From contig JAQICJ010000292.1 in the NCBI GenBank assembly GCA_027858615.1, positions 623 through 64,622 of the forward strand: a stretch of 64,000 nt of DNA. Reading direction: 5' to 3'. Positions 5,653 to 63,192 of the stretch are shown piece by piece (position 1 is the stretch's first letter; the number at the start of each line of letters is the position of its first letter). This DNA is from Deltaproteobacteria bacterium (GTDB lineage Bacteria > Myxococcota_A > Polyangia > HGW-17). The notes under the pieces were generated by a model. The model saw only the letters and a program-made list of their open reading frames with translations, was not told where the DNA came from and made no database searches. The position numbers were made by a program, and so were the translations under genes.

Positions 5653-5714
5653 TATTTCGTGTGGTTCCGGTTCAACTAAAAACCCAGTCTGAAACCTTTA
5701 TTTCAAAAAGGTTT

Positions 5715-23940: not shown

Positions 23941-23945
23941 TATAG

Positions 23946-24106: not shown

Positions 24107-24150
24107 TAGTTAACTTGCCCCCTTTTTGCTCCATTCAATTTTGGGAAAAA

Positions 24151-42327: not shown

Positions 42328-42367
42328 TTTGCCTGCAGAATTGTTTTGCTGTCAGTTAGTTTTCATC

Positions 42368-44118: not shown

Positions 44119-44891
44119 ATAAAGAAACAATCATCAACCAGCTATTTGCATCAACCAGATTTTCTATTATTGCAGGACCCTGTGCGGTTGAATCAGAACA
44201 ACAGTTAGATCTGCTGGCTCGCAAACTTTCTTTTCTGGGGGTTGAAATTTTCAGGGGAGGAGCCTTTAAAAGTCGGACTTCTCCCGACAGTTTTCAAGGT
44301 TTGGGAGTTAAAGGTCTGCAATTACTTCAAAAAATAGCCTCCAAATACAAGATGATTGCAATTTCCGAAATCATGAGTGAAAACCAGTTGGAAGCAGCAG
44401 CCAAATATGTTGATATTATGCAGGTTGGAGCTCGAAATATGCAAAATATCCCTTTGCTTAAAGCAATTGGCAAACAAAAAAAGCCCGTATTATTGAAAAG
44501 GGGGTTTGGCAGCACCATAAATGAAGTAGTGGAGGCTACCAAATATATTTCCGATCAGGGTAACCAAAAAATAATTCTCTGTGAAAGGGGCATCAGAACT
44601 TTTGAACCTGCAACCAGATTTACTCTGGACCTGTCTTCTGTTCCCATTTTCAAGGAAAAAACACCATATCCGGTATTTGTTGATCCATCCCATGCTTCCG
44701 GCAGGGCAAAGCTCGTTCCCTTTTTGAGCAGAGCCGCTCTGGCCATTGGAGCCGACGGTCTCATGATTGAAGTTCATGAAACCCCCCAAAAAGCACGTTC
44801 CGATGGTTTGCAGTCATTGACTCCGATTCAGTTCAGTAAATTGCTCGATTTTCTCAAGCCCATGGCCGGGCTGCTGGGAAAAAAAATCTAA
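44115..44891 (+). CDS. aroF: 3-deoxy-7-phosphoheptulonate (DAHP) synthase, short type I-beta (no regulatory domain).
   Basis: IAGPCAVESEQQ...FRGGAFKSRTSPDSFQGLG...QVGARNMQN...LLKRGFGSTI...ILCERGIRTFE...VFVDPSHASGR. The DPSHA(S/T)G and KPRTS motifs point to DAHPS rather than KDO8PS. Overlaps the U32 stop. Confidence 0.75.
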   Translation: MNKETIINQLFASTRFSIIAGPCAVESEQQLDLLARKLSFLGVEIFRGGAFKSRTSPDSFQGLGVKGLQLLQKIASKYKMIAISEIMSENQLEAAAKYVDIMQVGARNMQNIPLLKAIGKQKKPVLLKRGFGSTINEVVEATKYISDQGNQKIILCERGIRTFEPATRFTLDLSSVPIFKEKTPYPVFVDPSHASGRAKLVPFLSRAALAIGADGLMIEVHETPQKARSDGLQSLTPIQFSKLLDFLKPMAGLLGKKI

Positions 44892-47644
44892 ACTTCCTTA
44901 TCTTTTTTCAGGTATTTACCCGTAATCGAATCGGGATTGTTCATTATTTCCCCGGGAGTTCCCTCACCTGTTATCTGCCCGCCTTCATCTCCCCCGCCGG
45001 GACCAAGATCAATTATATAATCTGCCGCCTTGATTACATTGAGATTATGCTCAATTACTACCGCCGTTGCTCCTTTATCCACCAGAGAATGCAGTACTTC
45101 TATCAATTTCCCCACCTCATGCTGATGTAGTCCCGTGGTTGGTTCATCCAGAATATACAGGGTTCCCGGCAGACTTTTCTTTCCCAGTTCTCTTGAAATT
45201 TTAATTCTCTGGGCTTCACCTCCGGAAAGAGTGGTGGCCGGCTGTCCCAGTTGAATATAATCCAGTCCCACATTTTTCAGAATCCGGAGTTTTCTCTGCA
45301 AAGCTTCAAAGTTGGCAAAAAATTCAACTGCTTCTTCCACAGTCATTTCCAAAACCTCGGCTATATTTTTGCCTCTGTATTCTATGTCCAAGGTTTCCCG
45401 ATTGTATCTTCTGCCTTCACAAAGGTCGCACTTGACAAAAACATCCGGCAGGAAATGCATTTCAACCTTGATTATACCTTCTCCTCTGCAGGCTTCACAG
45501 CGTCCTCCCTTGACATTGAAACTGAAGCGTCCCTTTTGGTACCCTCTGGTTTTTGCTTCCGGCAGACAGGCAAAAATATCCCTGATCTGATCAAAGACCT
45601 TGGTATAGGTTGCTGGATTGGAGCGGGGAGTTCTGCCAATGGGGGACTGGTCGATCATTATGCATTTTTTGATCTTGTCGATATTTTTCATTCCATCTAT
45701 TTTACCTGCTTTTCCGGCTTTTTTACCCAGATGAACCGACAGGTGATTATAAAGGGTGTCCACTACCAGTGAACTTTTGCCTGAACCGGAAACTCCGGTG
45801 ACGCAAATGAGATTTTTATAAGGCAGTTTAAGATCGATATTTTTGAGATTATTGGTTCTGATATTTTTCAAATAAAAGAAATCTTTAATTTTTCTTCTGG
45901 TTTCAGGCTCTTTGATTTTCAGATCGCCCCTGAGATATTTGGCGGTAAGGGATTGTGATGCTTGCAACAATCTTTGGGGTGTACCTTGAAAAACCAGATT
46001 TCCTCCGTGTTTTCCCGAACCCGGTCCCAATTCGATCAGATGATCCGATTCTCTCATTGTCTGTTCATCATGTTCAATAACAATTACCGTATTTCCTCTG
46101 GATTGCAATTCTCTCAAAGTGTTGAGCAGTCTTCTGTTATCCTGCTGGTGCAATCCGATAGTGGGTTCATCCAGAACATAAATCACTCCCACCAGACCTC
46201 CTCCCAACTGACTGGCTAGTCTGATTCTCTGTGCTTCTCCTCCTGATACTGTAGACATTTCTCTGGACAGAGAAATGTAGTTCAATCCCACCTTGTTGAG
46301 GAATTTAAGCCGATGAACCAGTTCTTTGATCAGAGGAGCGGCCAGTTTGGCCCGCAGACCTGTGAATTTGATTTGCAGCAGCCATTGCAAAGCCGAACTA
46401 ATGGGCTTACGGGTGAAATCATCGATATTAATTCCTTCAATCTGAAAAGCCAGGGCTACGGGATTGAGTCTGGCTCCCTCGCACAGATCACATTCCTGGC
46501 TCTGCCTGAATCTGGCATAATTCTTTTTGAAACGTCCCCGGTAGTGTTCGCCCTGCTTGAGAATTTCCTTGATTCCAATCCAGTCAAGCTCGTCATCACC
46601 TTCAAACAGAGCCTTCCATCCCTGGGACGAAATTCTCTCCAGGGGAGTGTCAAGGTTAAATCCATATTTTTCTCCTACCACGGCAAAGGGATCACTCCAG
46701 GTTCTGAGGGCATATTTTTTGAAAGGAATCAAACCTCCCTGATTTATGGAAAGACTGCGGTTGGGAGCGATAAGATCAGGTTCATAATAATAAACAGAAC
46801 CGATTCCGTGGCACTTTTCACAGGAACCATCGGGACTGTTGAAGGAAAAGATATGGGGTTCGGGATCGGGAAGTCCGATCTGGTGAACGGAACAGGCCGA
46901 CTGAGTGTTATAGTATTTTTTTTCACCATCGGCAGTTTCGAAAATGAGCTTTCCATTGCCGTAAACCAACGCCAGTTCAACTGAATCCGCCAGCCTGGTT
47001 CGCATTTTCTTTTTAATTTTCAATCTGTCAACCACCGCCAGAATCGTATGTTTTTTGTTTTTTTCCAGAGTTGGAACTTCGTCTAGTTCATATATCCGGT
47101 TGTCAATTTTCAGTCTGGAAAAACCCTCTTTTCGGGCTTTTTTAATGATATTTTCGTGTCTTCCTTTTTTCCTGTTGACCAGAGGGGCGAGAAGATAGAA
47201 TTTTGTTCCCTCTTTGCCTTTGAGAATATCATCGACAATCTCTTCCCCTGTCTGTTTCTCGATTTTCCTGTTACAAACTGGACAATGGGGTTCCCCGAGC
47301 CGGGCAAAAAAGACCCTGAGAAAATCATGGATTTCAGTGACAGTTCCCACAGTTGAACGGGGGTTGCGAGTGCTGGCATATTGTTCGATGCTGATAGCCG
47401 GAGATAGTCCGTTGATTTCCTTGACTTTGGGTTTGTCGAGTTTTGGCAGAAACTGACGGGCATAGGCACTTAAAGATTCTACATAGCGTCTTTGACCTTC
47501 TGCATAGATTATATCAAATCCCAGAGTTGATTTTCCGGAACCGGAAGGACCGCAGACCACGATGAATTTTTCCCGGGGAATATCAAGATCAATATTTTTT
47601 AAATTATGTTCGGCTGCTTTTTTGATGGAAATATATTTTTTCAT
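44888..47644 (-). CDS. uvrA: Excinuclease ABC subunit A.
   Basis: Two ABC ATPase modules (GPSGSGKSTL; GVSGSGKSSL), zinc-finger cysteines (CPVCNRK ... CEKCHG; CEACRGEG...CDLCEG), 918 aa. Confidence 0.95.
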   Translation of the reverse strand: MKKYISIKKAAEHNLKNIDLDIPREKFIVVCGPSGSGKSTLGFDIIYAEGQRRYVESLSAYARQFLPKLDKPKVKEINGLSPAISIEQYASTRNPRSTVGTVTEIHDFLRVFFARLGEPHCPVCNRKIEKQTGEEIVDDILKGKEGTKFYLLAPLVNRKKGRHENIIKKARKEGFSRLKIDNRIYELDEVPTLEKNKKHTILAVVDRLKIKKKMRTRLADSVELALVYGNGKLIFETADGEKKYYNTQSACSVHQIGLPDPEPHIFSFNSPDGSCEKCHGIGSVYYYEPDLIAPNRSLSINQGGLIPFKKYALRTWSDPFAVVGEKYGFNLDTPLERISSQGWKALFEGDDELDWIGIKEILKQGEHYRGRFKKNYARFRQSQECDLCEGARLNPVALAFQIEGINIDDFTRKPISSALQWLLQIKFTGLRAKLAAPLIKELVHRLKFLNKVGLNYISLSREMSTVSGGEAQRIRLASQLGGGLVGVIYVLDEPTIGLHQQDNRRLLNTLRELQSRGNTVIVIEHDEQTMRESDHLIELGPGSGKHGGNLVFQGTPQRLLQASQSLTAKYLRGDLKIKEPETRRKIKDFFYLKNIRTNNLKNIDLKLPYKNLICVTGVSGSGKSSLVVDTLYNHLSVHLGKKAGKAGKIDGMKNIDKIKKCIMIDQSPIGRTPRSNPATYTKVFDQIRDIFACLPEAKTRGYQKGRFSFNVKGGRCEACRGEGIIKVEMHFLPDVFVKCDLCEGRRYNRETLDIEYRGKNIAEVLEMTVEEAVEFFANFEALQRKLRILKNVGLDYIQLGQPATTLSGGEAQRIKISRELGKKSLPGTLYILDEPTTGLHQHEVGKLIEVLHSLVDKGATAVVIEHNLNVIKAADYIIDLGPGGGDEGGQITGEGTPGEIMNNPDSITGKYLKKDKEV

Positions 47645-47915
47645 TGGAGATTATGCTCCGAGTTGATTGTTTCAGATTTTGATCGACTCACCAGTTTAAA
47701 TCAGGAAGGGACTAAAAAGTACTTTTTGACTTTTAATTATGCATCTTTATAGTAAAGTCTGATTCAATTCTGTTTTGAGTCTGGAACTGACTACCCTTTG
47801 CCGGGCCTTTAACTCAACTTGTATTTTACCGGTGTCAAACAAGCCGATTATTTGGCAACTATCTGGGCAGTTCGGGTTTTTGCTTCAGGTTCCAGTCTTT
47901 TAAATAAAACCTGTT

Positions 47916-48632
47916 TTGGAGGATAGAATGGAAATCGCATCAATATATCAAATATCAGCCCAGTCCCTCAATATAATGGAAATGATCCTCAATTCCAGGG
48001 GAATGGTTCTGCTCGATTTGATAGTTTTGATAATATTCAGTTTGCTAACCTGGTATATTATAGTGTTCAAGGGTGTTTTCTACTCCAAGATCAAAAAGAA
48101 CAATTCTCAGTTTCTAGAGAAGTTCTGGAGTGGCAATAATCTGGATCAAATTTTCAAATTCAGTAAAAACCTGCCGGGAAGTTCTTTGTCCCAACTGTAC
48201 AAAGCAGGTTACAACGAATTGATCCGATTGAAAAAAAGAACAAAAGATACGCCGGGAAGTCAGGGTGAAGATTTGAAAAACCTGGAAAGAGCGTTGCATA
48301 AATCTTCCATGGTGCAGATAACCAAGCTGGAATCACTTTTGCCGATCCTGGCTACAATTTCGGCTACAGCACCATTTCTGGGACTTTTTGGAACAGTTTG
48401 GGGGATAATGACAACCTTCAGTTCCATCGGTATTGAGGGAAATACTACTTTATCCACCGTGGCTCCGGGAATTGTGGATGCCCTGGTTACAACTGCTCTT
48501 GGTTTGATTGCAGCAATTCCGGCCACTATTGCCTATAACTATTTTTTGAGAAAGGTCAAATTGCAGATTGCAGATATGGAAACTTTCGCTAATGATTTTC
48601 TTAACATAGCCCAGAGAAAATTTTTCCAATAA
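47916..48632 (+). CDS. tolQ: MotA/TolQ/ExbB proton-channel protein (TolQ by context).
   Basis: Three-TM topology and conserved C-terminal TM pair (ATISATAPFLGLFGTVWGIM ... GIVDALVTTALGLIAAIPA). Confidence 0.85.
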   Translation: MEDRMEIASIYQISAQSLNIMEMILNSRGMVLLDLIVLIIFSLLTWYIIVFKGVFYSKIKKNNSQFLEKFWSGNNLDQIFKFSKNLPGSSLSQLYKAGYNELIRLKKRTKDTPGSQGEDLKNLERALHKSSMVQITKLESLLPILATISATAPFLGLFGTVWGIMTTFSSIGIEGNTTLSTVAPGIVDALVTTALGLIAAIPATIAYNYFLRKVKLQIADMETFANDFLNIAQRKFFQ

Positions 48633-48644
48633 GTTTAACTACCA

Positions 48645-49088
48645 ATGAAAATATCCAAACAAGCCCACAATGAAAATCTTTCTGAAATGAATCTGACTCC
48701 ACTTGTAGATGTGGTGATGGTTTTAATGATTATCTTCATGGTTACCGCTCCCCTGGAACCAGAAGGTATTGATCTGGATCTTCCTGATGCCGATGCGGCA
48801 ACTATTCCCAAAGATGATGGCAAACTCACCATTTACATGGAGCTCGATAAAACTATCACCATTACCGCCGGTGAAAAACAACTTATCACCACCGAATTGA
48901 AATCACTCAAAAATGTACTGCTCAATAAATTCAGCAACAAAAAAGAAGCCAATATCAAGGCAGACAAAGAGTTGAAATATGAGGAGATTATGAAATTGCT
49001 GGTGGAAGTCAGAAAAGGCGGAATAACCAAACTCGGTCTGCTGGTTAATAAAAAGAAGAAAGATAAAACTAAAGACAAAACTGAATAG
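48645..49088 (+). CDS. tolR: ExbD/TolR biopolymer-transport protein.
   Basis: MNLTPLVDVVMVLMIIFMVTAP (ExbD/TolR TM signature). Length 147 aa. Confidence 0.85.
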   Translation: MKISKQAHNENLSEMNLTPLVDVVMVLMIIFMVTAPLEPEGIDLDLPDADAATIPKDDGKLTIYMELDKTITITAGEKQLITTELKSLKNVLLNKFSNKKEANIKADKELKYEEIMKLLVEVRKGGITKLGLLVNKKKKDKTKDKTE

Positions 49089-49120
49089 TTCCTTAACAGG
49101 AAAATTCGTTCGAATTTTTA

Positions 49121-50068
49121 ATGAAAATTTCAAATCCTTTTCTCAAAAAAAATTTCAACCACCTGCTTTCAGGAAGTATCACCATTATTTTACATCTGAT
49201 AGCAGGATTTCTCCTGGCAAACAGTGTAGCTGGAAGTACCCCGGTAACTGAGGCTAAAAAGCCCGAAAAACCTCTACCTGTTTCCCTTGTTTCTCCGGAG
49301 ATCAATCCTCCGGTACAAGAGGTCAAGGTTGCAAAAAAGACAAAGTTGAATAAAAAGACCCGCAAAACCAGAACCTCTAAAACCAAAAAACATCAGGTGG
49401 TTAAAAAGGATGGAGCCAATGAGTTGGAAAAGAAAGAGGATGAAAAGGAAGAAAAAATAGATGACAGCGGAGTAGACTGCTCCCTTTTTGATGAAGCTTC
49501 CTGTTCACCTTGTCTGGCGGCTCCCGAGGTTTGCAAGGTATGCTGTAAAATCGAGGAAAAAAAAGAAGTAAAAGAAAGCACCCGAACCATTACCAACCAG
49601 TCAACTTGTGAAAATCCTCCCTGCGACAAAAAAGACCCCTGCACTTCAGAAGCTTTGGCAATCATGTCATCTTCTTTCTGTCCCAAAGTTAGAAGTAGTG
49701 TATATTCCCGTCTGGGCAGAATTACCCTCAGGGGAGTGGGCAACAATAAGTTTCTGGCAGCTCGAATTTCCGTTTCTGTCAGTTCCACCGGTTCAATTTC
49801 CCTTTCTTCCTTTTTGAAAAGTTCAGGCAATGGCAAATTCGATGCAGCCATCAGAAAAGCGGTCAAAGGGGCAAGCAGGGTGCTTCCTCCCACCAAAATA
49901 ACTGCTTGTGTGACCACCCGTGGTTGTATTTTTAATGTTACTATTGGAGCTCGCAAAGTTGATAATTCCAAATCAACCATAAAACTTGACAATAAAAAAC
50001 CAGACAGCAATAAAGATAAAAACAAAAAATCTACAGAAGGAAAAACTTCTGGGAAGGATAAATCATGA
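49121..50068 (+). CDS. TolA/TonB-like energy-transducer protein.
   Basis: N-terminal TM anchor, Pro/Lys/Glu-rich spacer and a C-terminal TonB-family domain (...SSGNGKFDAAIRKAVKGASRVLPP). Placed between tolR and tolB, so TolA is the likely call. Confidence 0.55.
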   Translation: MKISNPFLKKNFNHLLSGSITIILHLIAGFLLANSVAGSTPVTEAKKPEKPLPVSLVSPEINPPVQEVKVAKKTKLNKKTRKTRTSKTKKHQVVKKDGANELEKKEDEKEEKIDDSGVDCSLFDEASCSPCLAAPEVCKVCCKIEEKKEVKESTRTITNQSTCENPPCDKKDPCTSEALAIMSSSFCPKVRSSVYSRLGRITLRGVGNNKFLAARISVSVSSTGSISLSSFLKSSGNGKFDAAIRKAVKGASRVLPPTKITACVTTRGCIFNVTIGARKVDNSKSTIKLDNKKPDSNKDKNKKSTEGKTSGKDKS

Positions 50069-51417
50069 ACAAATTACTTCTCCTCTTAATTACTTTTTTT
50101 CCTGTTGCAGCCCAGGGTGTGAAATGCCCCATACCCAATTGTCCCAAAGGGCAATTGTGTTTTTGTCCGCCGCCGCCGCCACATTATATGGTAATTAAAG
50201 ACAAATCCACGGGATCCAACTCCAAAGCCGGCAAAATTTTTACAGACAGATTAAAAAGCAATTTTGCCCTTACAGCTTCTTTTTCTTTCAAAAACAAGTT
50301 CAGTCCCAAATACCAATCTTCCAAAACTCCCCTCGATCAGATTTCAAAATGGCATCTGATTACCCTCAAGTTAAAACAGGGCAATAAAACAACCGGAGTT
50401 GAAGTAAAGTTATTTTCCAGAAAAACACCTCGTTCCAGCCGTAAAAAAGAGATTTGGGAAACAAGTTTCAATTTTAATTCCAGCAACCTGAAAAAATCAA
50501 CTGATCTTCTGGGAAATCAGTTAATGGCTAAAATCATCCAAAGAAAATTCTCCGCTTTTGGTTCAAAAATGGCTTATGTTCACAATATAACGAGGGGAAA
50601 ATCCTATATCAGGGTTGCCCATTTCAACGGAGAAGAAAAAGACCAATCTCTTTCCAGCCATAAACTTGTTTCCTTCAAAGTATCCTATAACAAGGAACCT
50701 TTCTGGGGACCCAGAGGAGAATATCTTTTTTTCACGTCCCATGCTCGTTACAATCCCGATTTATATATCGTCAAACCCGGAAACAATCCGGTTAAACCTT
50801 TGCGTATCAGTGCCCGCAACGGCATGAACCATGCTGCGGTACTCTCCAATAAACGCAAATATCTGGCTCTCACCATGGATTTCAGAGGCAATCCGGATAT
50901 ATATCTGTTGAAACCAGATTTTAAAACTACAAAAAAATGGAGAATTATCAAAAAGTTGACGACTCATCATTCCATAGACACTTCTCCATCGTTTTCTCCG
51001 GACGGCAAAAGAATAGTATTTGTTTCCAACCGCAGAAAAAGAGCTCAGATTTTCACAAAAAAGATTAAAGGTGGTAAACCCAGGTTGTTATTTTCAACTG
51101 GAAATCGCACCTATACACCCAGATGGTGCTCTTCGGGCAAGAGAGAATATCTTGCTTTTACTCAACTTGTAGGAAATAAATCGGTGATTTATGTCTACGA
51201 TCTCAAGACCAGAGGCGGTTGGCAGGCAACTAGCAGTTCAGCTCCAAATGCAGAAAATCCCGCATGGAGTCCCCACTGTAACTTGATTAGCTATGAATCT
51301 TCGGGGTCAAAAACGAAAAAAAATGGAATATGGATAAGCCCCGTCAGAGGTGGAAAATCCTCAGTGTTTTTAAAGGGTTCCCTCACAATGCCCGCTTGGG
51401 ATAGAGGTCGAAAGTGA
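50065..51417 (+). CDS. tolB: Tol-Pal system beta-propeller protein.
   Basis: Signal peptide and repeated WD40-like beta-propeller blades (SFSPDGKRIVFVSNR; P.WSPDG-like blades). Confidence 0.75.
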   Translation: MNKLLLLLITFFPVAAQGVKCPIPNCPKGQLCFCPPPPPHYMVIKDKSTGSNSKAGKIFTDRLKSNFALTASFSFKNKFSPKYQSSKTPLDQISKWHLITLKLKQGNKTTGVEVKLFSRKTPRSSRKKEIWETSFNFNSSNLKKSTDLLGNQLMAKIIQRKFSAFGSKMAYVHNITRGKSYIRVAHFNGEEKDQSLSSHKLVSFKVSYNKEPFWGPRGEYLFFTSHARYNPDLYIVKPGNNPVKPLRISARNGMNHAAVLSNKRKYLALTMDFRGNPDIYLLKPDFKTTKKWRIIKKLTTHHSIDTSPSFSPDGKRIVFVSNRRKRAQIFTKKIKGGKPRLLFSTGNRTYTPRWCSSGKREYLAFTQLVGNKSVIYVYDLKTRGGWQATSSSAPNAENPAWSPHCNLISYESSGSKTKKNGIWISPVRGGKSSVFLKGSLTMPAWDRGRK

Positions 51418-51598
51418 TTGATATGACAAAAAAGTTTATTTCATCACTTGACAAAGATCTTTTTAGGAATAATGTAGTTTTCAATTAAATAGTTTATAAT
51501 TTTAATTTTGATTCTCTAACATTTAACGGGGTTAGTCCCACCTTTTATTAATTTTTTATTCTGCGAATCAGAAAGATTCCAGAAAGCGAGGAACCATA

Positions 51599-51916
51599 AT
51601 GACAAAAACCGAATTAATTGACAAAATTTACAGAAGCGAAAAAATTGCTAAAACCACAAAAAAACAAGTAAGTGAAATCGTAGACGCTCTTTTCGACGAA
51701 TTAGGCGATTACTTCATCAAAACCAAACCTACCAAAAAAACAAGTGACCCCAAACTCACATATCCCGGTTTTGGTACTTTCAAAAAGAGAAAACGCAATA
51801 AAAAACAGGGAAGAAATCCCCAAACTGGTAAACCCATCACTATTCCTGCCCATTTCACTGTTACTTTCACACCAAGTTCAATTCTCAAGAACAAAATGAA
51901 CGGTAAAAAGAAATAA
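51599..51916 (+). CDS. HU/IHF-family nucleoid DNA-binding protein with a Lys-rich insertion.
   Basis: MTKTELIDKI...KKQVSEIVDALFDEL...TYPGFGTFKKRKRNKKQGRNPQTGKPITIPA (the beta-arm RNPQTG signature). Confidence 0.8.
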   Translation: MTKTELIDKIYRSEKIAKTTKKQVSEIVDALFDELGDYFIKTKPTKKTSDPKLTYPGFGTFKKRKRNKKQGRNPQTGKPITIPAHFTVTFTPSSILKNKMNGKKK

Positions 51917-51941
51917 GCAGTTAATTTAAATATATTTCAGT

Positions 51942-51985
51942 GTTTCACCTTTGTCGTTCCGGCAAAGGTGAAACCATCTTTCCCC
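51942..51985 (+). terminator. Rho-independent terminator of the HU gene.
   Basis: Perfect 12-bp stem GTTTCACCTTTG / CAAAGGTGAAAC with a 9-nt loop, followed by CATCTTTCCCC. Confidence 0.65.
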
Positions 51986-52101
51986 TTCTCCTTTCTAAAT
52001 AGTTCTGCTCAACCACTCACAAAACAGTAAATTTTTCCAAAAGTTGCTTTTTTGTTTTAAATCCAGAATGGGAACTAAATAGCCGGATATCAAGCTAAAT
52101 T

Positions 52102-52797
52102 ATGAGTACACTTATCAACAATAAAACTCAAAATTTACCCAAGAGGCTTATCTCCAAATTTGATGCCGGAGTGCTTCTAGGAGGCTTTACCCTGTGGTTT
52201 GCTTCACTAGGTTCCCTGAGTGTTGAACCGGCTTTTCTCTGGAGCCTGCTATTATTACCCTGGCTTGCCTTCAAATTGAAACTAAGTTTTTTTGTAAGAA
52301 CAGTAATCTGGCCGGTGATAATTACCATCATGATTCTTCTTAACCGACAGCCAAACTGGTTTCAGGTTCTGACTCTGTTTTTCCTGACTCTGGCTTATTA
52401 TTTTTTTGTGCTGGAAGAAAGATATCAGACAAAGGAAATCAAGCTTGAAAAGATTGAAATCAAAAATAAGCAGAAGAAAATTTACCCTTTTCTTTTCTTT
52501 TTCTTCAGTCTCAGTCTACTGCTGGTGGAATATTTCAGTTTTTCCCGTTATCAGGCCTTCGTTTTATTATACACGGCTTTCATTTTGTCATCTTTGTTCA
52601 ACTTGCTTAAAGTAGCCGACAAAATTTCTGGAAAAAAACTGAAGGTTTTAGCTTTTTTCTCATTATTTCTTCTGCTTTCAATTTTATTTTCCAGCTATTA
52701 CCAGAAAACAAATTACCTGGTTTCATCCCTCATCTCCCTCTTCTTCCTGGCCACAGGAATAAACCTGATAGCCACCCGAACCCCCAAAAGTAATTAA
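52102..52797 (+). CDS. Hypothetical polytopic membrane protein.
   Basis: 5-6 predicted hydrophobic helices. No recognisable motif. Confidence 0.4.
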   Translation: MSTLINNKTQNLPKRLISKFDAGVLLGGFTLWFASLGSLSVEPAFLWSLLLLPWLAFKLKLSFFVRTVIWPVIITIMILLNRQPNWFQVLTLFFLTLAYYFFVLEERYQTKEIKLEKIEIKNKQKKIYPFLFFFFSLSLLLVEYFSFSRYQAFVLLYTAFILSSLFNLLKVADKISGKKLKVLAFFSLFLLLSILFSSYYQKTNYLVSSLISLFFLATGINLIATRTPKSN

Positions 52798-52800
52798 TTC

Positions 52801-53314
52801 CCGGCTCGGCGATTGACATCGGTTCCTGATGGATTGGATCCGGGGGAGGCTGTCAGTTTAGTCTTATCATATGTTACTGCTTATCAAATGCTCAACAGAG
52901 TTGCCCAAGTTAAACCGGCTTGTAGAAGAAGGACTGGACGCGGTCTTTGATTCAATTGGCGGCAAACATATAAAACGTTCTTTTAAGGTTTTGGGAAGCG
53001 GCGGCAAGCTTGTCAGTTATGGTTTTTATAACTCCGTAATGGGAAAAGGCGGCAGTATTCCTTTGGATTTTCTCCGCCTCAAATGGTGGAATTTCCTTCC
53101 TGATCATCGTTCCACCTCGTTTTATTCTATTGGAGCCCTGCGAAAAAAACATCCAGATTGGTTTTCCGAAGATTTAATCACCCTCTTTAATCTACTAAAA
53201 AATAAAAAAATAAACCCCATCATAGACAGAAGAATTCCACTAGCCAAAGCCAAAAAAGCTTATAAATTAATAGAAAATGCAAAACCAAAAGGAAAAATAA
53301 TCCTGGAACTATAA
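52801..53314 (+). pseudogene. Remnant of an MDR-family (zinc-type) quinone oxidoreductase / alcohol dehydrogenase. The N-terminal catalytic domain and the Rossmann GxGxxG are missing, and there is an internal frameshift.
   Basis: Frame 1 reads ...VPDGLDPGEAVSLVLSYVTAYQMLNRVAQVKP then stops. Frame 2 (ORF 52871-53314) continues with ...LVEEGLDAVFDSIGG...KINPIIDRRIPLAKAKKAYKLIENAKPKGKIILEL, the C-terminal dimerisation region of the family. Confidence 0.6.
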
Positions 53315-53428
53315 CCAACACCTACCACCGCTTGATTTTAGACCGCATGGAGATGATGAATATTATTTACTATTGGTTTGACAAAGATATGTTAATATTT
53401 TAAAAATAATTATTCGATTATAATATTA

Positions 53429-55195
53429 ATGGAACTATCTAAGTTTATCAATATTCAGGTTAAGGATTTTGCTATGCTAAACAAATATATTTGGACACTG
53501 TTTGCTATTGTGTTTCTTGTTTTTGCCGGTTGTGACGACGATGATGGGAATAACAATAATAATATCAACAATGTCAACAACGATAACAACTTTACTTGGG
53601 ATTATGTTCCCACAAATACAAGCAGAAATATTGATCTGCTTTTTGTAATCGACAACTCCCTTTCCATGGAACAGGAGCAAGCAACAGTCAGAAACAGTTT
53701 TACAAACCTGGTTCAGGTTTTAGAAAATATCTCCGGTGGTCTTCCCAATGTCCATATTGGTGTTACTTCTACCGATCTTGGTACACTCCCCCATAATCTT
53801 CCCAGTTGTACCACCCCCGATGGTGACAATGGTCAAATACTCAAGGGTAACAACAATTCCTGTGCCAATCCCGTGGGTCAAAATTACATCGTTGATGTGG
53901 AAGCCAAAAATTGCGATATTCAAAGAGACGATCAGGATTCCAGGGCTTGTGTTGATCACAGTTGTGTAGTTTCAAATTGCCAAATCGAAGGAGAACCAAG
54001 TGGTTTGGTTCTTTATGAAGACGAAAATGGATGTCCCCGTTGTCGTAATTATGAAGGTGAACCTTTGGAAGATGTTTTCTCCTGTACAGCCGATTTGGGA
54101 ATTAATGGCTGCGCTTTTGAACAGCATCTCGAAGTTCTCTACCGAGCTTTTGCAGAAAACAATATTGAAAACGAAGGATTCTTCAGAGAAAATGCCATTG
54201 TGGCCATTTTCTTTATTACTGATGAAGACGACTGTTCTACTACAAACGGTAATATTTTTGATCCTGAAGGTGATATCACTACCACTCTCGGACCACTCAG
54301 TTCTTTTCGTTGTACCGAATTTGGTATCAAATGCGACGAAACTTGGAATCGTGTACCACCCAGTGGAGAAATGACAATGCATAATTGCATGGCTCGTACA
54401 GCCGACGATTATAAATCATTGCTTTATCCAATCTCAAGATATACCACTCTCATGACCAATAATTTTGATCCCAGCAATATCCTCATTGGCGCCATTGCCG
54501 GTCCTTATGATCAAACACTTACAGTACAATCAAACAGAGATTTAGAACCTAGACTTGGTTTTTCCTGCTATGCTTCCGGAGAAAGCGAAATCGGAGCTGT
54601 TCCTGCTGTTAGAATCAAGGAATTTGTTGAGGCTTTTGTTACTTCCGGAGAAGATATGGGCTGGGCCTATACATCAGTTTGCAATCAGTATTATTCTCCG
54701 GCTTTGGAAGGACTTGGCAACAAAATCAAAGATAAGATAGTAGATATTCAATGTTCTCCATCGCCACTTGCGGGTTGCCCCGATCCAGCCGCTGCCAATG
54801 GTTTAACTCCAATTACCGATTTAGATTCTATGACAAGCGAAACCTGCGATCCAAATTGTACTGTTTACGACATCAATCCCGACGATTCACATACCGAGAT
54901 TGAACATTGTGCTCCAGATGCAGGTCCTGATGGCGATGGTCATCCACCCAAAATATGGGATGGCCTGACAGCACCCTGTTATCATGTGGTTTACGAAAAA
55001 AGATGCGACTTCTTTTCTTCTCATTCACCTTCCAGGGGAGCTAGCATCATAATTTCCCGTAAAGAACCCTCCCCCTTTGGTACTATTACCAAAATTACAT
55101 GTGAACTTTTTCCCCTTGAGGAAATAGATTGCCATGACGGAAGAGATAATGATGTTGATGGTTTGACCGACGGTTCGGACCCCGATTGTCAATAA
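53429..55195 (+). CDS. Lipoprotein with Asn-rich linker, von Willebrand A (VWA) domain and Cys-rich C-terminal region ending in a D-rich CxDGxDNDxDGxxDxxDPDC motif.
   Basis: Lipobox VFAGC + DDDDGNNNNNINNVNNDNN. VWA MIDAS-like DxSxS (LLFVIDNSLSM). Many paired cysteines. C-terminus IDCHDGRDNDVDGLTDGSDPDCQ. Confidence 0.65.
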   Translation: MELSKFINIQVKDFAMLNKYIWTLFAIVFLVFAGCDDDDGNNNNNINNVNNDNNFTWDYVPTNTSRNIDLLFVIDNSLSMEQEQATVRNSFTNLVQVLENISGGLPNVHIGVTSTDLGTLPHNLPSCTTPDGDNGQILKGNNNSCANPVGQNYIVDVEAKNCDIQRDDQDSRACVDHSCVVSNCQIEGEPSGLVLYEDENGCPRCRNYEGEPLEDVFSCTADLGINGCAFEQHLEVLYRAFAENNIENEGFFRENAIVAIFFITDEDDCSTTNGNIFDPEGDITTTLGPLSSFRCTEFGIKCDETWNRVPPSGEMTMHNCMARTADDYKSLLYPISRYTTLMTNNFDPSNILIGAIAGPYDQTLTVQSNRDLEPRLGFSCYASGESEIGAVPAVRIKEFVEAFVTSGEDMGWAYTSVCNQYYSPALEGLGNKIKDKIVDIQCSPSPLAGCPDPAAANGLTPITDLDSMTSETCDPNCTVYDINPDDSHTEIEHCAPDAGPDGDGHPPKIWDGLTAPCYHVVYEKRCDFFSSHSPSRGASIIISRKEPSPFGTITKITCELFPLEEIDCHDGRDNDVDGLTDGSDPDCQ

Positions 55196-55340
55196 ATTAT
55201 TTTTATTGATAAAAACTCATTGGGGTTATTGGCATCTCCCCGGAGTAGTATTACCCTTCCTTCCTAATTGCCGGCAGCTTGTTTCCTTCCTGATTACCGG
55301 CAGCTTGTTTCCTTTCTGATGGCCAGCGCCTTGTTTCCTT

Positions 55341-55451
55341 CCTGACAGGCCGGCAGCTTCTTCTTGAATATCAACTTGTTTTATTTGCTTTTTCAGATTA
55401 TTTTATGAGGGTCATTATATGAGCTTGGGTTCTGGTATTATTAATAATAGT
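55341..55451 (+). repeat. ~108-bp direct repeat, copy A. Copy B lies at 56954-57061 immediately 3' of the Sel1/Hcp-like gene.
   Basis: CCTGACAGGCCGGC(A/G)GCT(T/C)CTTCTTGAATATCAACTTGTTTTATTTGCTTTTTCAGATTATTTTAT(G/A)AGGGTCATTATATGAGCTTGGGTTCTGGTATTATTAATAA appears in both places. Copy A is preceded by decayed short tandem repeats (GCCGGCAGCTTGTTTCCTTCCTGAT x3), i.e. a degenerate gene 3' end. Confidence 0.8.
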
Positions 55452-55460
55452 TCTAGCGAA

Positions 55461-55614
55461 TTCCAAAATAGAAGTTTATCGTCTGGCGACGGAATCTGGC
55501 CTCATCTGCTTTGTTCTAACTTCTTGAAATAGTGACAACTATATCTTCAAAGTTATTTCGCGCATCTGAGGCAAACTTCTTCCCCAGCCAAAAACCCCCA
55601 TTCTGGGATGGGAA
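55461..55614 (+). mobile_element. MITE-like repeat copy 5, with a degenerate 5' inverted repeat and an intact 3' inverted repeat (...CATTCTGGGATGGGAAC).
   Basis: Direct alignment with copy 1: ...ATCGTCTGGCGACGGAATCTGGC(T/C)TCATCTGCTTTGT... and the 3' end TTCTGGGATGGGAAC. Confidence 0.65.
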
Positions 55615-56032
55615 CTATTTATCCTGTTTTTCCCCCTTTTTTATCTAAAATTTCAATTAGTCAGCACAATCTTTTCATTACCATCAGGTAAAGCTCTTTT
55701 TCCGTATTTCTTCCACCGTCAGAAGTAATTTACCTGCCGTCAAATCATTGAATGACTTTTCCCTTGAATTGCTTGAATATAGTCGATACACTGTTTTTAG
55801 TTTCGAATAAGGATTATTTGGTTTTTTTAAGTTTCATAACCCTTTTATATCATAAAAGGATCTGCCAAATAATCCTTTTTTTATTATTTTGGTTAGAAAT
55901 CCGGGTTAAAGAATTAAAAAATCCTGTGATTTGAAATATGGAGTAGGCTTTTTATCTCCAGGTGATTGCTACAAAAACGGTTACGGGGTAAAAAGTAGAA
56001 TTATTCCAAAAACTAACAAAAGGAGAAAATAA

Positions 56033-56959
56033 ATGCTAAACAAAATAATTATGTTAACACTGGCATTTCTAATTACTTCGACTGCTAAAGGGCAAAGAAA
56101 AGTTCATTTTAAAAAAGGTTTGAAATTTGAATTAAATCTGGATTTTGAAAATGCTGAAAAAGAATTTAAAAAAGCTTGTGCTTTGAAGTCTGGATCTGGT
56201 TGTTTTAAACTAGGATATTGCTACAAAAACGGTACCGGGGTAAAGAAGGATAAAATAAAAGCAGCAAAATATTATAAAAAAGCCTGTGCTTTGAAGTCTG
56301 GAGCTGGTTGTTTTAAACTAGGGGATTGCTACAAAAACGGTACCGGGGTAAAGAAGGATAAAACAAAAGCAGCAAAATATTATAAAAAATCCTGTGCGTT
56401 GAAGTCTGGATCTGGTTGTTTTAAACTAGGGGATTGCTACAAAAAAGGTACCGGGGTAAAACAGGATAAAACAAAACCAGCAAAATATTATAAAAAATCC
56501 TGTGCGTTGAAGTCTGGATCTGGTTGTTTTAAGCTAGGGGATTGCTTAGGGGATTGCTACCAAAACGGTTACGGGGTAAAGAAGGATAAAACAAAAGCAG
56601 CAAAATATTATAAAAAAGCTTGTGCTTTGAAGTCTGGATCTGGCTGTTTTAAACTAGGGGATTGCTACCAACATGGTTACGGAGTAAAGCAGGATAAAAC
56701 AAAAGCAGCCATGTATCATAAAAAATCCTGTGCTTTGAAGTCTGGAGCTGGTTGTTTTAAACTAGGGAGTGACTACAAAAACGGTACCGGGGTAAAACAG
56801 GATTTAACAAAAGCAGCCATGTATTATAAAAAAGCCTGTAAATATGGGTATCAAGGAGGCTGTAGACTAACCCCGGATCCAAGAAAGCGGCCTTTTACTG
56901 GAACCAGACCAACCAATTACTGTAAGCCAACCAAGCCTCCGTATATTCCTCCTTCCTGA
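56033..56959 (+). CDS. Sel1-like repeat (SLR) cysteine-rich protein of the Helicobacter Hcp type, secreted.
   Basis: Signal peptide MLNKIIMLTLAFLITSTAKG. Seven consecutive ~37-aa units KAAKYYKK(A/S)CALKSG(S/A)GCFKLGDCYKNGTGVK(K/Q)DKTK, with paired Cys per unit as in HcpA/B/C. Confidence 0.85.
   Translation: MLNKIIMLTLAFLITSTAKGQRKVHFKKGLKFELNLDFENAEKEFKKACALKSGSGCFKLGYCYKNGTGVKKDKIKAAKYYKKACALKSGAGCFKLGDCYKNGTGVKKDKTKAAKYYKKSCALKSGSGCFKLGDCYKKGTGVKQDKTKPAKYYKKSCALKSGSGCFKLGDCLGDCYQNGYGVKKDKTKAAKYYKKACALKSGSGCFKLGDCYQHGYGVKQDKTKAAMYHKKSCALKSGAGCFKLGSDYKNGTGVKQDLTKAAMYYKKACKYGYQGGCRLTPDPRKRPFTGTRPTNYCKPTKPPYIPPS
56167..56850 (+). repeat. Tandem array of ~111-bp near-identical DNA repeats (about six units) encoding the SLR units.
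   Basis: Visible unit-to-unit DNA identity well above 90%. Includes a 12-bp micro-duplication GGGGATTGCTTA|GGGGATTGCTAC at 56537-56560. Confidence 0.85.
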
Positions 56960-57061
56960 CAGGCCGGCGGCTCCTTCTTGAATATCAACTTGTTTTATTT
57001 GCTTTTTCAGATTATTTTATAAGGGTCATTATATGAGCTTGGGTTCTGGTATTATTAATAA
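56954..57061 (+). repeat. ~108-bp direct repeat, copy B (partner of 55341-55451).
   Basis: See copy A. It overlaps the last codons of the SLR gene. Confidence 0.8.
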
Positions 57062-57108
57062 GTTGCGATGAAGCAGTAGAATCCAAATTTCCCTGATGGA
57101 GTTTACTT

Positions 57109-58347
57109 ATGTCCCAAAAACGTTCCTGGTTTAATGTGCATCCCGATCTTATTAAAAAATGGAAGAAACAACTAAACGATTATCGGGGCAGCGGTGGAAT
57201 TCAAATGGATATTGATCAATATTCCGTATTGTTGCAAGATAGCAAGATCCCTCTTCGTATTTTGGATAAGGGAGGAATCAGTATCTTGAAATATTTTAAT
57301 GAACTCCCTGTTCTCCCTACTGATTTCACAGCTCTGCTTTATATCGACGAAATTGATTTTGCTTGCAAAATGGCACAGCGCATTTATTCCAGAAAAGAAA
57401 AACAACTCAAGGACCATAAATTTCTTCCCCATCCTGTTTATTTGCTTGCCAACAGTTCCACTTTTAAACCGGAACAAATTGAACAATATTGTCAGATTCT
57501 TCTCAATCTCGAAGATCCTGGAACTTTACTTGATATTCTAACTTATGTGGCAATTTTGGAATTTGTGTTTTCTAAGTCGTGGATTGCCAAACGGGTGTTG
57601 CAAAATTACTGTTCCGGGCCAAGAGGTGCTTCAGATCTGCTTGATGGGGCCAAATATTGGAAACTCATCTTCAACAGCGACAACCAATTCCAAAAATATC
57701 GCAAAAAAGCTTTTGAATCTGAGGATGCTCCTTCCAAATGGAATAGTTTGGCAGTGTATATGTTAAAAGAAGAAAGAAATCTTGAGGTAGTTGAAAAATA
57801 TTACAGTAAATTCATAAAAGACAGAGAGGAAGATAAAATTTACAACTGGACGTTTTTTGCCAATTATGTCTGGTATGTTTTTAATGACTCCGATTTGGTG
57901 GTTACTTATTTGAACAGAGTTTCCACTGAGACAGGGGTGGATTCTCTGACCCACCTGGCAGCTTGCTGGATGAGAATTGGAAACAATCCCTCAAAAGCCA
58001 GAGAAACCATGGATAAAGCAATTTTGCAAGCCACAACTCCCGAAGATTTTATTGTCTGTGCTCGGACACTTTTAGATGTGTTTGACGATGCCAAACAAGC
58101 ACAAAAATACCTGGATAAAATCGATTTTGATGATCTCGATCCTTTTCGCAAACTTCGCTACACCATGGTTGATAAAAAACTTAACGGCGTTATAGCGGAA
58201 AAAGAACATCCTCCCCAGGAAAGTTATAACCAGCTCAAAGAGTTGTTACAACCGGAGCCGGGAACCACAGATGATTTCATGACCGATATAGCCGCAAGTT
58301 TCCTCAAAAACCTCGATCTCCCCTTCGACCTCGACGACGAAGATTAA
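57109..58347 (+). CDS. Hypothetical 412-aa cytoplasmic protein with acidic C-terminus (...DLPFDLDDED).
   Basis: Intact ORF. A start ATG at 57109 is preceded by a purine-rich stretch. No recognisable domain. Confidence 0.45.
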   Translation: MSQKRSWFNVHPDLIKKWKKQLNDYRGSGGIQMDIDQYSVLLQDSKIPLRILDKGGISILKYFNELPVLPTDFTALLYIDEIDFACKMAQRIYSRKEKQLKDHKFLPHPVYLLANSSTFKPEQIEQYCQILLNLEDPGTLLDILTYVAILEFVFSKSWIAKRVLQNYCSGPRGASDLLDGAKYWKLIFNSDNQFQKYRKKAFESEDAPSKWNSLAVYMLKEERNLEVVEKYYSKFIKDREEDKIYNWTFFANYVWYVFNDSDLVVTYLNRVSTETGVDSLTHLAACWMRIGNNPSKARETMDKAILQATTPEDFIVCARTLLDVFDDAKQAQKYLDKIDFDDLDPFRKLRYTMVDKKLNGVIAEKEHPPQESYNQLKELLQPEPGTTDDFMTDIAASFLKNLDLPFDLDDED

Positions 58348-59501
58348 CCCTCCTGGTTGCATCCCACAAAATCCAGATAGTTTTCCCTGTTGATAACTTC
58401 ATACTCAGCTTCAGGGTAGGTTTTTGACCACAGGGCCGGTGCCTTGGGTTTTTTGTTGCCGAACTTGAATTCATATCCGAACAGTTTTCCCTCCCTTTCT
58501 TCCACAAGATCGATTTCCTTTTGATCCCAGGTTCTCCAAAAATAAAGATTATGAAAAATTTCGCAGTATTTGTTTTTTCTCAGTCTTTCATTGAACAAAA
58601 AATTTTCCCAGAGCTGACCTTTGTCATTGCGGATATGCAGCGGATTAAAGTTGGAAATAAGCGCATTCCTGATGCCATTGTCGTAAAAATAGTATTTATT
58701 CTTTTTGACGATTTCTTTTCTCAAATTTCTGCTGAACCCTGAAAGACTATAAATTACAAAGGATTTTTCCAGAATATCCAAATATCTTCCCACTGTTTTT
58801 CCGGCAACTCCAATATTTTTTGCAATTTCCGAAAGAGACACTTGACTGCCTGTCTGAAAAGCAAGTAGTCGCAGCAGATCAAATATAACCCTGCTGTTTT
58901 TTATTTTATCAAAAGCTATAATATCTTTGAGTAGATAGGAGTGAGCCAATTCGTCGAGAATTAACCCTTTTTCCTGTTTTGAGGAAGCTGTGACGACTTC
59001 GGGATAAGCACCGAAAATCAGCAAATCCTCAAGTTTTTCTTTTAGTTCGAACTTGTTGTAAATTTGGGAAAGTTCCAGATGGGAGAGGGGAAACATGGTG
59101 AGAGTTCTTTTGCGTCCTGTTAAAGGTTCTCCAATATTTCCGGCCAGGTCAAAAGATGAAGATCCGGTGGCTATAACCATAAGCTGCGGATGAGAATCGA
59201 CCAGCAGTTTAAGCCCCGTTCCAATATTTTGTACTTTCTGGGCTTCATCTATAACTACAAGCTCGTAACCTGATGCGTATTCTGAGATTTTATCGGGGTT
59301 ATTTGATGAAAATATCTCTGCAATGCGAAAATCTTCGCCTGTGTCATATCTGTATTTTAAAGAGGTTTTGGCAAGAAAGTTTTTAACCAGAGTAGTTTTT
59401 CCAACCTGTCTCGGTCCAAAAATAACTAAAACTTTACCTTTTTTCAGATACTTATCAAGATTATCATAAATTCTGGGAATCATATTATTCTCCTGTTTCA
59501 T
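58344..59501 (-). CDS. AAA+ ATPase of the AAA_14 + DUF4143 type (ATP-binding protein).
   Basis: Walker A VIFGPRQVGKTTLVKNF and Walker B LVVIDEAQK. The C-terminal DUF4143-like region, ~385 aa, is typical of this family. Confidence 0.8.
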   Translation of the reverse strand: MKQENNMIPRIYDNLDKYLKKGKVLVIFGPRQVGKTTLVKNFLAKTSLKYRYDTGEDFRIAEIFSSNNPDKISEYASGYELVVIDEAQKVQNIGTGLKLLVDSHPQLMVIATGSSSFDLAGNIGEPLTGRKRTLTMFPLSHLELSQIYNKFELKEKLEDLLIFGAYPEVVTASSKQEKGLILDELAHSYLLKDIIAFDKIKNSRVIFDLLRLLAFQTGSQVSLSEIAKNIGVAGKTVGRYLDILEKSFVIYSLSGFSRNLRKEIVKKNKYYFYDNGIRNALISNFNPLHIRNDKGQLWENFLFNERLRKNKYCEIFHNLYFWRTWDQKEIDLVEEREGKLFGYEFKFGNKKPKAPALWSKTYPEAEYEVINRENYLDFVGCNQEG

Positions 59502-59889: not shown

Positions 59890-60966
59890 ATGAATATATC
59901 ACAACCCAAATTTCAGATAACCAATTCCATGACTTGTAATATTGCCGCCATTGAAAGGGTGCGTGGTTTTTTTGAAGCTGTAGATTTAAATAGTGAGTGG
60001 ATAAAAATTTACAGTCAGAAGGCTTTGTCCAAAGAAGCACACCACACAACCCACATTGAAGGAACTCAATTAACCTGGCAACAGGCTGACGCCATCTGGA
60101 ATGGAAAACAATTGGAAGATGCAGATCAAGAAGATGTAAGAGAACTTCTGAATTACAGGACTGCTTTCGAATACGTCTCTAAGCACATTGACAATGAAAA
60201 CCCTGTAACTGAAAAATTTATCAGAAAAATCCACTATAAATTAGTGGATAAAGTTCGTAGTGGAAAAGCAGCTCCCGGTATATACCGTAAAATTCCAAAT
60301 TATGTCATAAATTCTACAACAAAAAAAGTTATCTACACTCCCCCTCCTGCCCAAAAAATCCCTGATATGATGTCACAATTGGTAAAATGGTTGAATTATG
60401 AAGAAAATATTCACCCCTTATTGATCAGTGGAATCGCTCAATTCTGGTTGGTTCATATTCACCCTTTCCTTGATGGTAACGGCAGAACATCGAGGTTATT
60501 GTCAACAGCAGTTTTATACGGTTCAGGCTATGATTTTAAGCGCTTGTTCTCCCTGAGTGAATACTATGACCGCAATCGAAGGAATTTTTACAAATCTCTG
60601 CAAAGCGTCAGAGAAAACAATCTGGATATGACCCTATGGCTTGAATATTACCTGAAAGGACTCAACGTACAGTTAAATGAACTAAAATTGTTTGGGGAGA
60701 AAATGATTCGAAAAGATAACCTGGTAAGGAAGTACAAACTTAATGAAAGACAAAATCTTGCTCTGGAATACATCATTAATAATGGGGATTTAAGTATTAC
60801 AGAATACCAGAATTTATGTCCCCAGGTAAATCGGCGTACTTTACAACGAGATCTTGCAAAATTGACAAATAAACAAATAATAACAGAGCAGGGAAAAACA
60901 AATAATAAAATCTACCTTATTAAACATCTAATTCCCCCTCAGCCAGGATCAGGTTTTTACTGCTGA
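59890..60966 (+). CDS. fic: Fic-family protein (adenylyltransferase-type), class II with an N-terminal inhibitory helix. The C-terminal ~70 aa are likely a winged HTH.
   Basis: Canonical Fic motif [14 protein letters not shown] (HPFx[D/E]GNGR). Inhibitory (S/T)xxxE(G/N) motif in [10 protein letters not shown] upstream. Length 358 aa. Confidence 0.9.
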
Positions 60967-62676: not shown

Positions 62677-63192
62677 ATGAAAGAAGTTTCTGCTTTGGTA
62701 AAAAAGATCCAGCAGGGGGATCGCCAAGCTTGTGAAACTTTGGTAAGTCAATACTTTGGCAGTTGTTATGCAATTTCTCTTTCCATCGTCAAACAGGTAG
62801 AAGATGCTGAGGATGTAGCCCAGGAGTCATTGGTGAAAGCCATCGAAAAGATCGAACAATTGCGAAATATTAATCGTTTTGAATCCTGGCTGTTTCAAAT
62901 TGTGCGCAATCGTTCCCTGAATCGCTACAAGAAGTTGAAAAAACGCCACCATAGAGAAGTTAGTATTTGGAGGTCTTCCCCTGCCAAAAAGAAAGAAAAT
63001 ATCTATTTGCGTGACAGTTTACTCAAAGCTTTGGCAACTTTGGACGAAAAACAAAGAACAGTGGTTCTTCTTCACGAACTGGAAGGTTGGTCCCATGAGC
63101 AAATAGCCAAACAATTGGAAATTTCCAAGGTAATGTCGCGGCAAATTCTTTTTGTCAGTCGTAAAAAACTACAAGATGAGTTGGGAGAGTAA
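62677..63192 (+). CDS. ECF-type sigma-70 family RNA polymerase sigma factor.
   Basis: Region 2 (...AEDVAQESLVKAIEKI...FESWLFQIVRNRSLNRYKK) and region 4 HTH (LHELEGWSHEQIAKQLEISKVMSRQIL). GAGGTGGA RBS. Confidence 0.85.
   Translation: MKEVSALVKKIQQGDRQACETLVSQYFGSCYAISLSIVKQVEDAEDVAQESLVKAIEKIEQLRNINRFESWLFQIVRNRSLNRYKKLKKRHHREVSIWRSSPAKKKENIYLRDSLLKALATLDEKQRTVVLLHELEGWSHEQIAKQLEISKVMSRQILFVSRKKLQDELGE

Follow-up and report, generated by a model that had tools for sequence, protein, structure and literature searches.

Hcp proteins are defined by cysteine pairs in a C-x7-C arrangement, each preceded by alanine or serine (PMC4792463), and each pair forms a disulfide that joins the two helices of a Sel1-like repeat (SLR), one per repeat (PMC1941758). 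In Haemophilus influenzae, the number of SLR motifs in the slrV genes varies by strain (2 versus 4), and the evolution of the SLR genes of this species has been ascribed to duplication and contraction of both genes and motifs (PMC4792463). In Legionella pneumophila, the intragenic repeat lengths given in the part of the survey cited here are all divisible by 3, and two genes labelled 'TPR repeat protein', LPG1062 and LPG1172, have a period of 108 bp, or 36 codons (PMC2639597). Here we describe a new member of this known class, the SLR/Hcp-like repeat proteins: a locus whose repeat units were homogenised recently and which bears several scars of recombination. It lies in a 64,000-nucleotide stretch of contig JAQICJ010000292.1 (hereafter the window), from assembly GCA_027858615.1, an uncultured environmental 'Deltaproteobacteria'/Myxococcota metagenome-assembled genome (MAG). 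We consider it probable that the gene in question, at 56033-56959 (+), encodes a Sec-exported, disulfide-stapled SLR solenoid of the HcpC type whose units have been homogenised by recombination, and that the repeats around it are scars of duplication.

The gene is an uninterrupted open reading frame (ORF) of 308 codons, and a ribosome-binding site, AAGGAG, can be seen directly in the sequence at 56020-56025 (+), 7 nt 5' of the ATG. The 308-aa product matched Pfam Sel1 over six stretches (E=6e-54; 179 bits, cut-off 30.7). Its closest solved relative by phmmer was Helicobacter pylori HcpC (1OUV; E=5.8e-53, residues 29-280), and in that alignment every cysteine pair of the protein lines up with HcpC cysteines. 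There are seven C-x7-C pairs, at residues 49/57, 85/93, 121/129, 157/165, 197/205, 233/241 and 269/277, and the residue before each pair is A or S, in agreement with the published definition. An AlphaFold2 (AF2) model built with a 50-sequence alignment had helices paired throughout, with a mean predicted local distance difference test score (pLDDT) of 90.4 and a predicted template-modelling score (pTM) of 0.81; from the single sequence alone, pLDDT was 45. When the model was compared with the PDB using Foldseek, HcpC was the best match (E=5.6e-17, 42% identity), and the top matches after it were all SLR proteins: LpnE, Oxalobacter Sel1 proteins and E. coli c5321. By fold family and cysteine pattern, the product is thus an HcpC-type SLR protein.

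The N-terminus, MLNK-IIMLTLAFLITS-TA/KG (the slash marks the cleavage point), has the n/h/c layout of a Sec signal peptide, with small residues at -3 and -1. The hydrophobic leader spans residues 1-18, and we infer cleavage at STA/KG and, from the same features, export of the protein. A first-pass annotation of the window, made from its letters, had called the product a secreted, Hcp-like, cysteine-paired Sel1 protein; Pfam, the HcpC alignment and AF2/Foldseek agree with that assignment, in which secretion is a prediction. By analogy with HcpC and from the fold, the product is most likely a periplasmic or secreted scaffold whose groove holds a peptide or protein ligand.

The protein shares with HcpC the same seven alpha/alpha SLR repeats with one Cys-x7-Cys pair each, preceded by A or S, an N-terminal leader and a similar size (308 aa versus 273 residues in the HcpC crystal chain). 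In contrast to HcpC, it carries an additional Pro/Lys-rich tail, which is disordered in the AF2 model (residues ~281-308). The two proteins are just 42% identical, and the host of HcpC is a pathogen of the Campylobacterota, whereas the present gene belongs to an uncultured Myxococcota-like MAG. Among 5.8 billion proteins, relatives of the 308-aa protein were 33-49% identical to it, with none above 49%; in GTDB genomes the nearest were from Psychromonas (46%, the maximum) and Campylobacteraceae (43%). Because identity to HcpC is 42%, the best genome matches reach 43-46% and the host is a 'Deltaproteobacteria'/Myxococcota MAG, we conclude that the protein is Hcp-like in architecture and lies outside the Helicobacter gene family. 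Such architecture is common in environmental data: at least four C-x7-C pairs were present in 63 of the 120 best environmental homologues. The H. influenzae SlrV/Msf proteins are likewise SLR proteins and secreted (predicted for the protein described here), but they have cysteines only in the C-terminal motif (PMC4792463). The genes on either side carry the accessions MDA3864826.1 and MDA3864828.1, and MDA3864827.1 is therefore presumably the Sel1 gene. An exact look-up in a collection of 15 billion protein sequences returned neither the 308-aa protein nor its alternative-start form, a partial product or the 272-aa six-unit allele described below.

The core of the gene is a tandem array. Tandem Repeats Finder (TRF) delimited it at 56167-56839 (period 108, 6.1 copies, 87% matches, score 949), and TRF, unit parsing, an identity matrix and nhmmer together placed six homogenised units of 108 bp (36 codons) at 56168-56827 (+). 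Unit 4 has 120 bp and 40 residues through a perfect tandem duplication of 12 bp (two copies, 56535-56558 (+), found by TRF) that adds LGDC in frame. AF2 confidence drops at this 4-residue insertion (pLDDT ~70); the third cysteine, in LGDCY, is ordinary, being present in 143 of 590 motifs of homologues. The seventh cysteine pair belongs to a divergent cap at the C-terminus, KKACKYGYQGGC. An nhmmer profile of the six units recovered all six of them (E ~1e-32 to 1e-35) plus one upstream copy, and did not pick up the cap. The tandem array reported by the first-pass annotation thus stands, but its seven near-identical units of 111 bp become six similar units of 108 bp with a mean nucleotide identity of 89%, and the 12-bp micro-duplication that it had placed at 56537-56560 is real and shifts to the coordinates given above.

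Unit-to-unit identity is 83-95% for nucleotides and 75-92% for amino acids. As a measure of how far this homogeneity departs from that of relatives, self-identity at lag 36 is 0.69 in the 308-aa protein, against a median of 0.28 in its 120 best homologues, of which seven reach at least 0.6; the mutual similarity of its repeats therefore distinguishes it from HcpC and typical homologues (~28% at lag 36) and is uncommon, not unique. The L. pneumophila 108-bp arrays have the same period, but in the cited part of the survey their DNA is ~70% identical, compared with 87-89% here, and LPG1062 and LPG1172 are not shown there among the seven strain-variable repeat loci (PMC2639597).

Units that are not neighbours have variants in common, in patterns that conflict with one another, and no two units carry the same combination of variants. 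The four-gamete test was failed by 40 of the 66 informative site pairs among units; because these pairs are incompatible, the units are mosaics, a pattern expected as the product of gene conversion or unequal exchange. The units are more alike in nucleotides than in amino acids, and this difference, together with the four-gamete failures, supports the earlier proposal that the units arose by recent expansion or concerted evolution. Pooled pN/pS (dN/dS) between units was 0.53, which gives no indication of diversifying selection between them. We propose that the six central 36-codon units were generated and kept alike by unequal homologous recombination or replication slippage, with additional gene conversion among them. 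As the length of each unit is divisible by 3, adding or losing one would change how long the solenoid is and leave the frame intact, so that the array would act as a size switch rather than an on/off switch.

The longest exact repeat inside the array is 55 nt (56370-56424 = 56478-56532), and others measure 32-46 nt, among them one of 33 nt (56167-56199 = 56611-56643). We found a second source of the locus, JGI metagenome 3300051639, through 90%-identity clusters of neighbouring proteins. Its scaffold Ga0534203_000316 (L002) matches window positions 43424-56199, and the reverse complement of Ga0534203_005777 (L003) matches the window from 56170 onward; besides N gaps, the two differ from the window by ~12 single-nucleotide polymorphisms (SNPs) in 20 kb (about 99.9% identity), which points to a near-identical population. 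The scaffolds contain five runs of 10 Ns, at the window equivalents of 43477, 48205, 51519, 51965 and 57833, and a cluster of T-indels lies beside one of these gaps (window 51489-51525). The gaps and T-indels indicate that this assembly is of low coverage or poorly resolved.

L003 equals window 56170-57108 minus exactly 108 bp, with zero mismatches over 831 nt. In the alignment to L003, the missing segment is 56370-56477 (+), or any 108-bp frame up to 56425-56532, and the junction can therefore be placed anywhere in 56370-56425, within the longest exact repeat of the array. The shorter allele encodes an in-frame protein of 272 aa that lacks unit 3. Apart from this unit, the second assembly reproduces the unit-specific variants, the 12-bp duplication, the copy number of an upstream minisatellite, a flanking transposon-like element and both copies of a 112-nt direct repeat (see below), the downstream copy being 100% identical in L003. 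This agreement bears on the concern, raised with the first-pass annotation itself, that the identity between units might be an artefact of the window's own assembly, with units chimeric or collapsed. Repeats of 32-55 nt could indeed mislead short-read assemblers, but an independent assembly matches 831 nt without a mismatch outside the missing unit and reproduces both the unit-specific variants and the 12-bp duplication, and the combination of variants in each unit is unique; we regard such an artefact as highly improbable.

A genuine recombinational deletion and a collapse during assembly would leave the same sequence, and we hold the two to be about equally probable as explanations of the missing unit. 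If the array were stable, a de Bruijn loop through the 55-nt repeat could have been taken once rather than twice during short-read assembly, and the duplication scars would then be of historical interest only; we give this explanation an even chance. At lengths of up to 56 nt the window contains every k-mer of the L003 array, and at 57 nt just one, that of the junction, is new; the junction falls on the longest exact repeat; the scaffolds carry five 10-N gaps in 20 kb; L002 and L003 themselves break inside the array at the 33-nt exact repeat, overlapping by 30 nt; and the two assemblies otherwise differ by only the dozen or so SNPs. All of these observations fit a collapse. A true RecA-mediated or slippage deletion, however, would likewise use the longest identity and remove 108 bp in frame, and the rest of the array was assembled free of error despite its other repeats of 32-46 nt. 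The size variability suggested by the first-pass annotation thus gains a second assembly that is one unit shorter, but the collapse accounts for that assembly equally well, and we treat in-frame size variation of the array as possible.

The sequences that flank the gene carry further traces of duplication. A direct repeat of 112 nt is present upstream as R1 (55336-55447 (+)) and downstream as R2 (56950-57061 (+)), whose first 9-10 nt overlap the end of the gene up to and including its stop codon. The copies lie 1614 bp apart, are identical at 109 of 112 positions (3 mismatches, 97%) and have sharp boundaries; in shuffled windows, 0 occurrences of a 34-mer of the repeat were expected. The bracketing repeat that had been described as 108 bp long, with its upstream copy at 55341-55451, is therefore real, although both its length and its coordinates needed correction. 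The repeat was absent from the rest of the window and from related loci, its 34-mer had 0 matches in GTDB representative genomes and JGI metagenome contigs, and a 24-mer of the units likewise had 0 matches in JGI contigs, so that no other allele came to light. Two roles for the repeat were ruled out. It is not an RNA element or terminator, as there was no Rfam match and it folds worse than shuffles (z +1.3 to +1.65), nor is it a conserved promoter of the downstream gene, for which homology with a related species begins only ~30 nt before the start codon.

R1 and the end of the gene have 9-10 nt of coding sequence in common. Because R1 holds these last 9-10 nt, it derives from a copy of the 3' end of the gene. 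Immediately before it, at 55257-55359 (+), TRF found a 26-bp minisatellite (3.9 copies, consensus TTCCTTCCTGATTGCCGGCAGCTTGT, 81% matches, score 134) with no other occurrence in the window. Its unit is a copy of the last codons of the gene, CCT TCC TGA, followed by ~15 nt from the start of the 112-nt repeat, and its final copy runs into R1. The decayed short repeats resembling a gene 3' end that had been reported at this place are thus a minisatellite made from the junction of stop codon and repeat.

A third trace lies directly upstream of the gene. The additional copy recovered by the nhmmer profile (E=8e-14) is a relic Sel1 unit at 55917-55993 (+), KKSCDLKYGVGFLSPGDCYKNGYGVK..., which tblastn and frame translation also identified; over 96 nt it is 67-72% identical to the six units. 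It shares the reading frame of the gene, and its TAA (56030-56032) directly abuts the ATG. The 35-nt fragment of a unit noted earlier at 55971-56005 is present, but it lies at 55961-55995 and is part of this longer in-frame relic. In our proposal, the relic would now serve as the 5' leader of the gene, and the 12-bp duplication, the 26-bp minisatellite, the 108-bp units and the 112-nt repeat would reflect one kind of event on four scales.

The arrangement of R, 1502 bp and R (an A-B-A layout) can be explained by a tandem duplication whose upstream copy was later deleted or by a single-crossover (Campbell-type) integration, two histories that leave the same layout. Recombination between R1 and R2 could also delete the gene. 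R1 and R2 have diverged by 2.7%; most pairs of units differ by more (5-17%), and the relic unit by much more (about 28%). This low divergence suggests that the upstream copy was deleted rather than decayed, and that the relic unit records an earlier, separate event. In relatives, synteny is not shared, and the ancestral arrangement therefore cannot be reconstructed: the only related species has genes 79% (aa) identical to the downstream gene and 75% identical to the upstream VWA gene, with different neighbours at both, and a 54% VWA homologue likewise stands in another gene context. The compared loci of the related species contained no Sel1 gene and no 112-nt repeat.

These data bear on the first-pass interpretation of the locus as a phase- or size-variable, host-interactive contingency locus with its origin in a tandem pair of Hcp paralogues, the upstream member of which was lost. 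The copy of the gene's 3' end held in R1, the relic unit upstream and the possible one-unit polymorphism are in its favour, as is the precedent of the tandem H. influenzae SLR genes, which vary by duplication and contraction of motifs (PMC4792463). That precedent, however, consists of multi-gene loci and variation across 24 genomes, compared with one gene and two assemblies here. Moreover, the sequence before R1 is a minisatellite and not decayed coding sequence, and the relic unit adjoins the start of the gene, not R1. Neither tblastn nor nhmmer detected any other Sel1-like sequence in the window, there was no close paralogue in the protein collection that holds the MAG's other proteins, and the ceiling of 49% identity among 5.8 billion proteins applies here as well; the further Hcp-like paralogues for which the first-pass annotation had suggested a search were found in neither place. 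A lost tandem paralogue is one among several equivalent recombination histories and is not supported over the others.

Phase variation, too, finds no basis in the repeats: the tandem periods are 12, 26 and 108 bp and multiples of 108, all those within the ORF are multiples of 3, no simple repeat would shift the frame or change the spacing of a promoter, homopolymers do not exceed 7 nt, including those of the 5' region, and the 26-bp array lies ~700 bp upstream of the start. The proposed role in host interaction had been extrapolated from pathogens, whereas this organism is represented by a MAG of environmental origin for which no host is known. For these reasons we consider the contingency-locus interpretation unlikely. 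Overall, then, the observation underlying the first-pass annotation was partly confirmed and its interpretation partly supported.

R1 is directly followed by a copy of a miniature inverted-repeat transposable element (MITE) of ~160 nt (55460-55619 (+)), as had been noted; its left end is degenerate. The family is small, non-coding and dispersed in several copies, with terminal inverted repeats AGTTCCCATCCCAAAA...TTTTGGGATGGGAACT, in keeping with the features by which MITEs are recognised. Five copies, 76-85% identical, occur in the window (5335-5494, 5498-5657, 23943-24113 (-), 42357-42527 (-) and 55460-55619), those at 5335 and 5498 forming a head-to-tail pair, and further copies are found in the related Myxococcota MAG GCA_051747125.1 (L001:1898-2221 and L004:665-821).

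The direct repeats thus enclose one gene and one MITE, and the segment might be viewed as a mobile cassette, with R as a recombinase site comparable to an integron attC or an island att. Accessory-type neighbours, a Fic protein and a DUF4143 ATPase, and the placement of the closest homologues in unrelated phyla (Psychromonas, 46%; Campylobacteraceae, 43%) would fit this view. R is nevertheless less structured than its shuffles, unlike attC, and has no inverted-repeat core; at 112 nt it far exceeds the usual core sites; no further copy was found in the window, the related loci, the GTDB representatives or the JGI contigs; and no integrase appeared in partial Pfam scans that covered 12 window proteins and left most ORFs unscanned. 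A cassette of this kind therefore seems to us very improbable.

We return to the reading that we favour, that of an exported HcpC-type solenoid homogenised by recombination. Several points weigh against it. The one-unit difference may be an assembly artefact, in which case there is no evidence of present-day variability; the units, with their pooled dN/dS of 0.53, give no sign of diversifying selection; and no orthologous locus was found in the relatives by which the rearrangements could be polarised. Export of the 308-aa protein is predicted from a hydrophobic N-terminus and the STA/KG site. To our knowledge, most Hcp proteins have no known ligand or function.

If the one-unit difference is real, a more far-reaching scenario can be drawn, which we hold to be possible but doubtful. 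The organism, possibly a predatory Myxococcota-like bacterium, would have acquired a disulfide-stapled adaptor of the Hcp type horizontally, would tune the length of its solenoid in frame by recombination among the 108-bp units and could excise the gene through the 112-nt repeats; the product would then be a contingency-like surface or periplasmic factor variable in both size and presence, outside a host-pathogen setting. A real difference would be a case in nature of an SLR solenoid whose length is tuned in frame, in a lineage that is environmental and not pathogenic, and would indicate that neither cysteine-stapled SLR proteins of the Hcp type nor the dynamics of their repeats are peculiar to Helicobacter-like pathogens. 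If it is instead an artefact, the locus is a caution: metagenome assemblies can silently drop or break units at 55-nt exact repeats, and the repeat counts of MAG proteins are not trustworthy without spanning reads.

One further element lies between R1 and the start of the gene. An A+T-rich hairpin with a 16-bp outer stem, followed by a T-run, occupies 55806-55887 (+), between the MITE and the relic unit (-22.5 kcal/mol, z=-4.3; none of 200 shuffles folded as stably). It is terminator-like and lies ~150 nt upstream of the Sel1 gene start, with no gene end just before it. A match to the Rfam family 'freshwater-2' at 55965-56035 was sub-threshold (E=0.11; 27.9 bits, cut-off 49.9), and we treated it as chance.

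Downstream, 149 nt after the Sel1 gene, is an orphan gene of 412 aa (57109-58347 (+)). Its product has no Pfam or NCBIfam domain, and among the 5.8 billion proteins it has two relatives, namely itself and the 79% orthologue. No terminator was detected between the two genes, and they may therefore be co-transcribed.

On the other side of the locus, the VWA gene (53429-55195 (+)) encodes 588 aa; the product has a weak VWA/MIDAS-like match at its N-terminus, a lipobox-like motif (LVFAGC) and an acidic double-disulfide repeat at its C-terminus. Among the candidates scored, 1576 were relatives (E<=1e-10); where these are named, they come mostly from Myxococcota or 'Deltaproteobacteria' MAGs, and the homologues that we looked up stand in differing gene contexts. 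Farther away, a 3719-aa ORF (26925-38084 (-)) is built of TPR-type repeats over nearly its whole length (matches to Pfam TPR_19, E=9e-47, and to many further TPR families), and other TPR proteins are encoded at 9481-11211 and 11437-15021. Accessory-type genes follow the orphan gene: a DUF4143/AAA_14 ATPase (58344-59501 (-)), a Fic/DOC protein (59890-60966 (+)) and an extracytoplasmic function (ECF) sigma factor (62677-63192 (+)), which together suggest a variable genomic neighbourhood.

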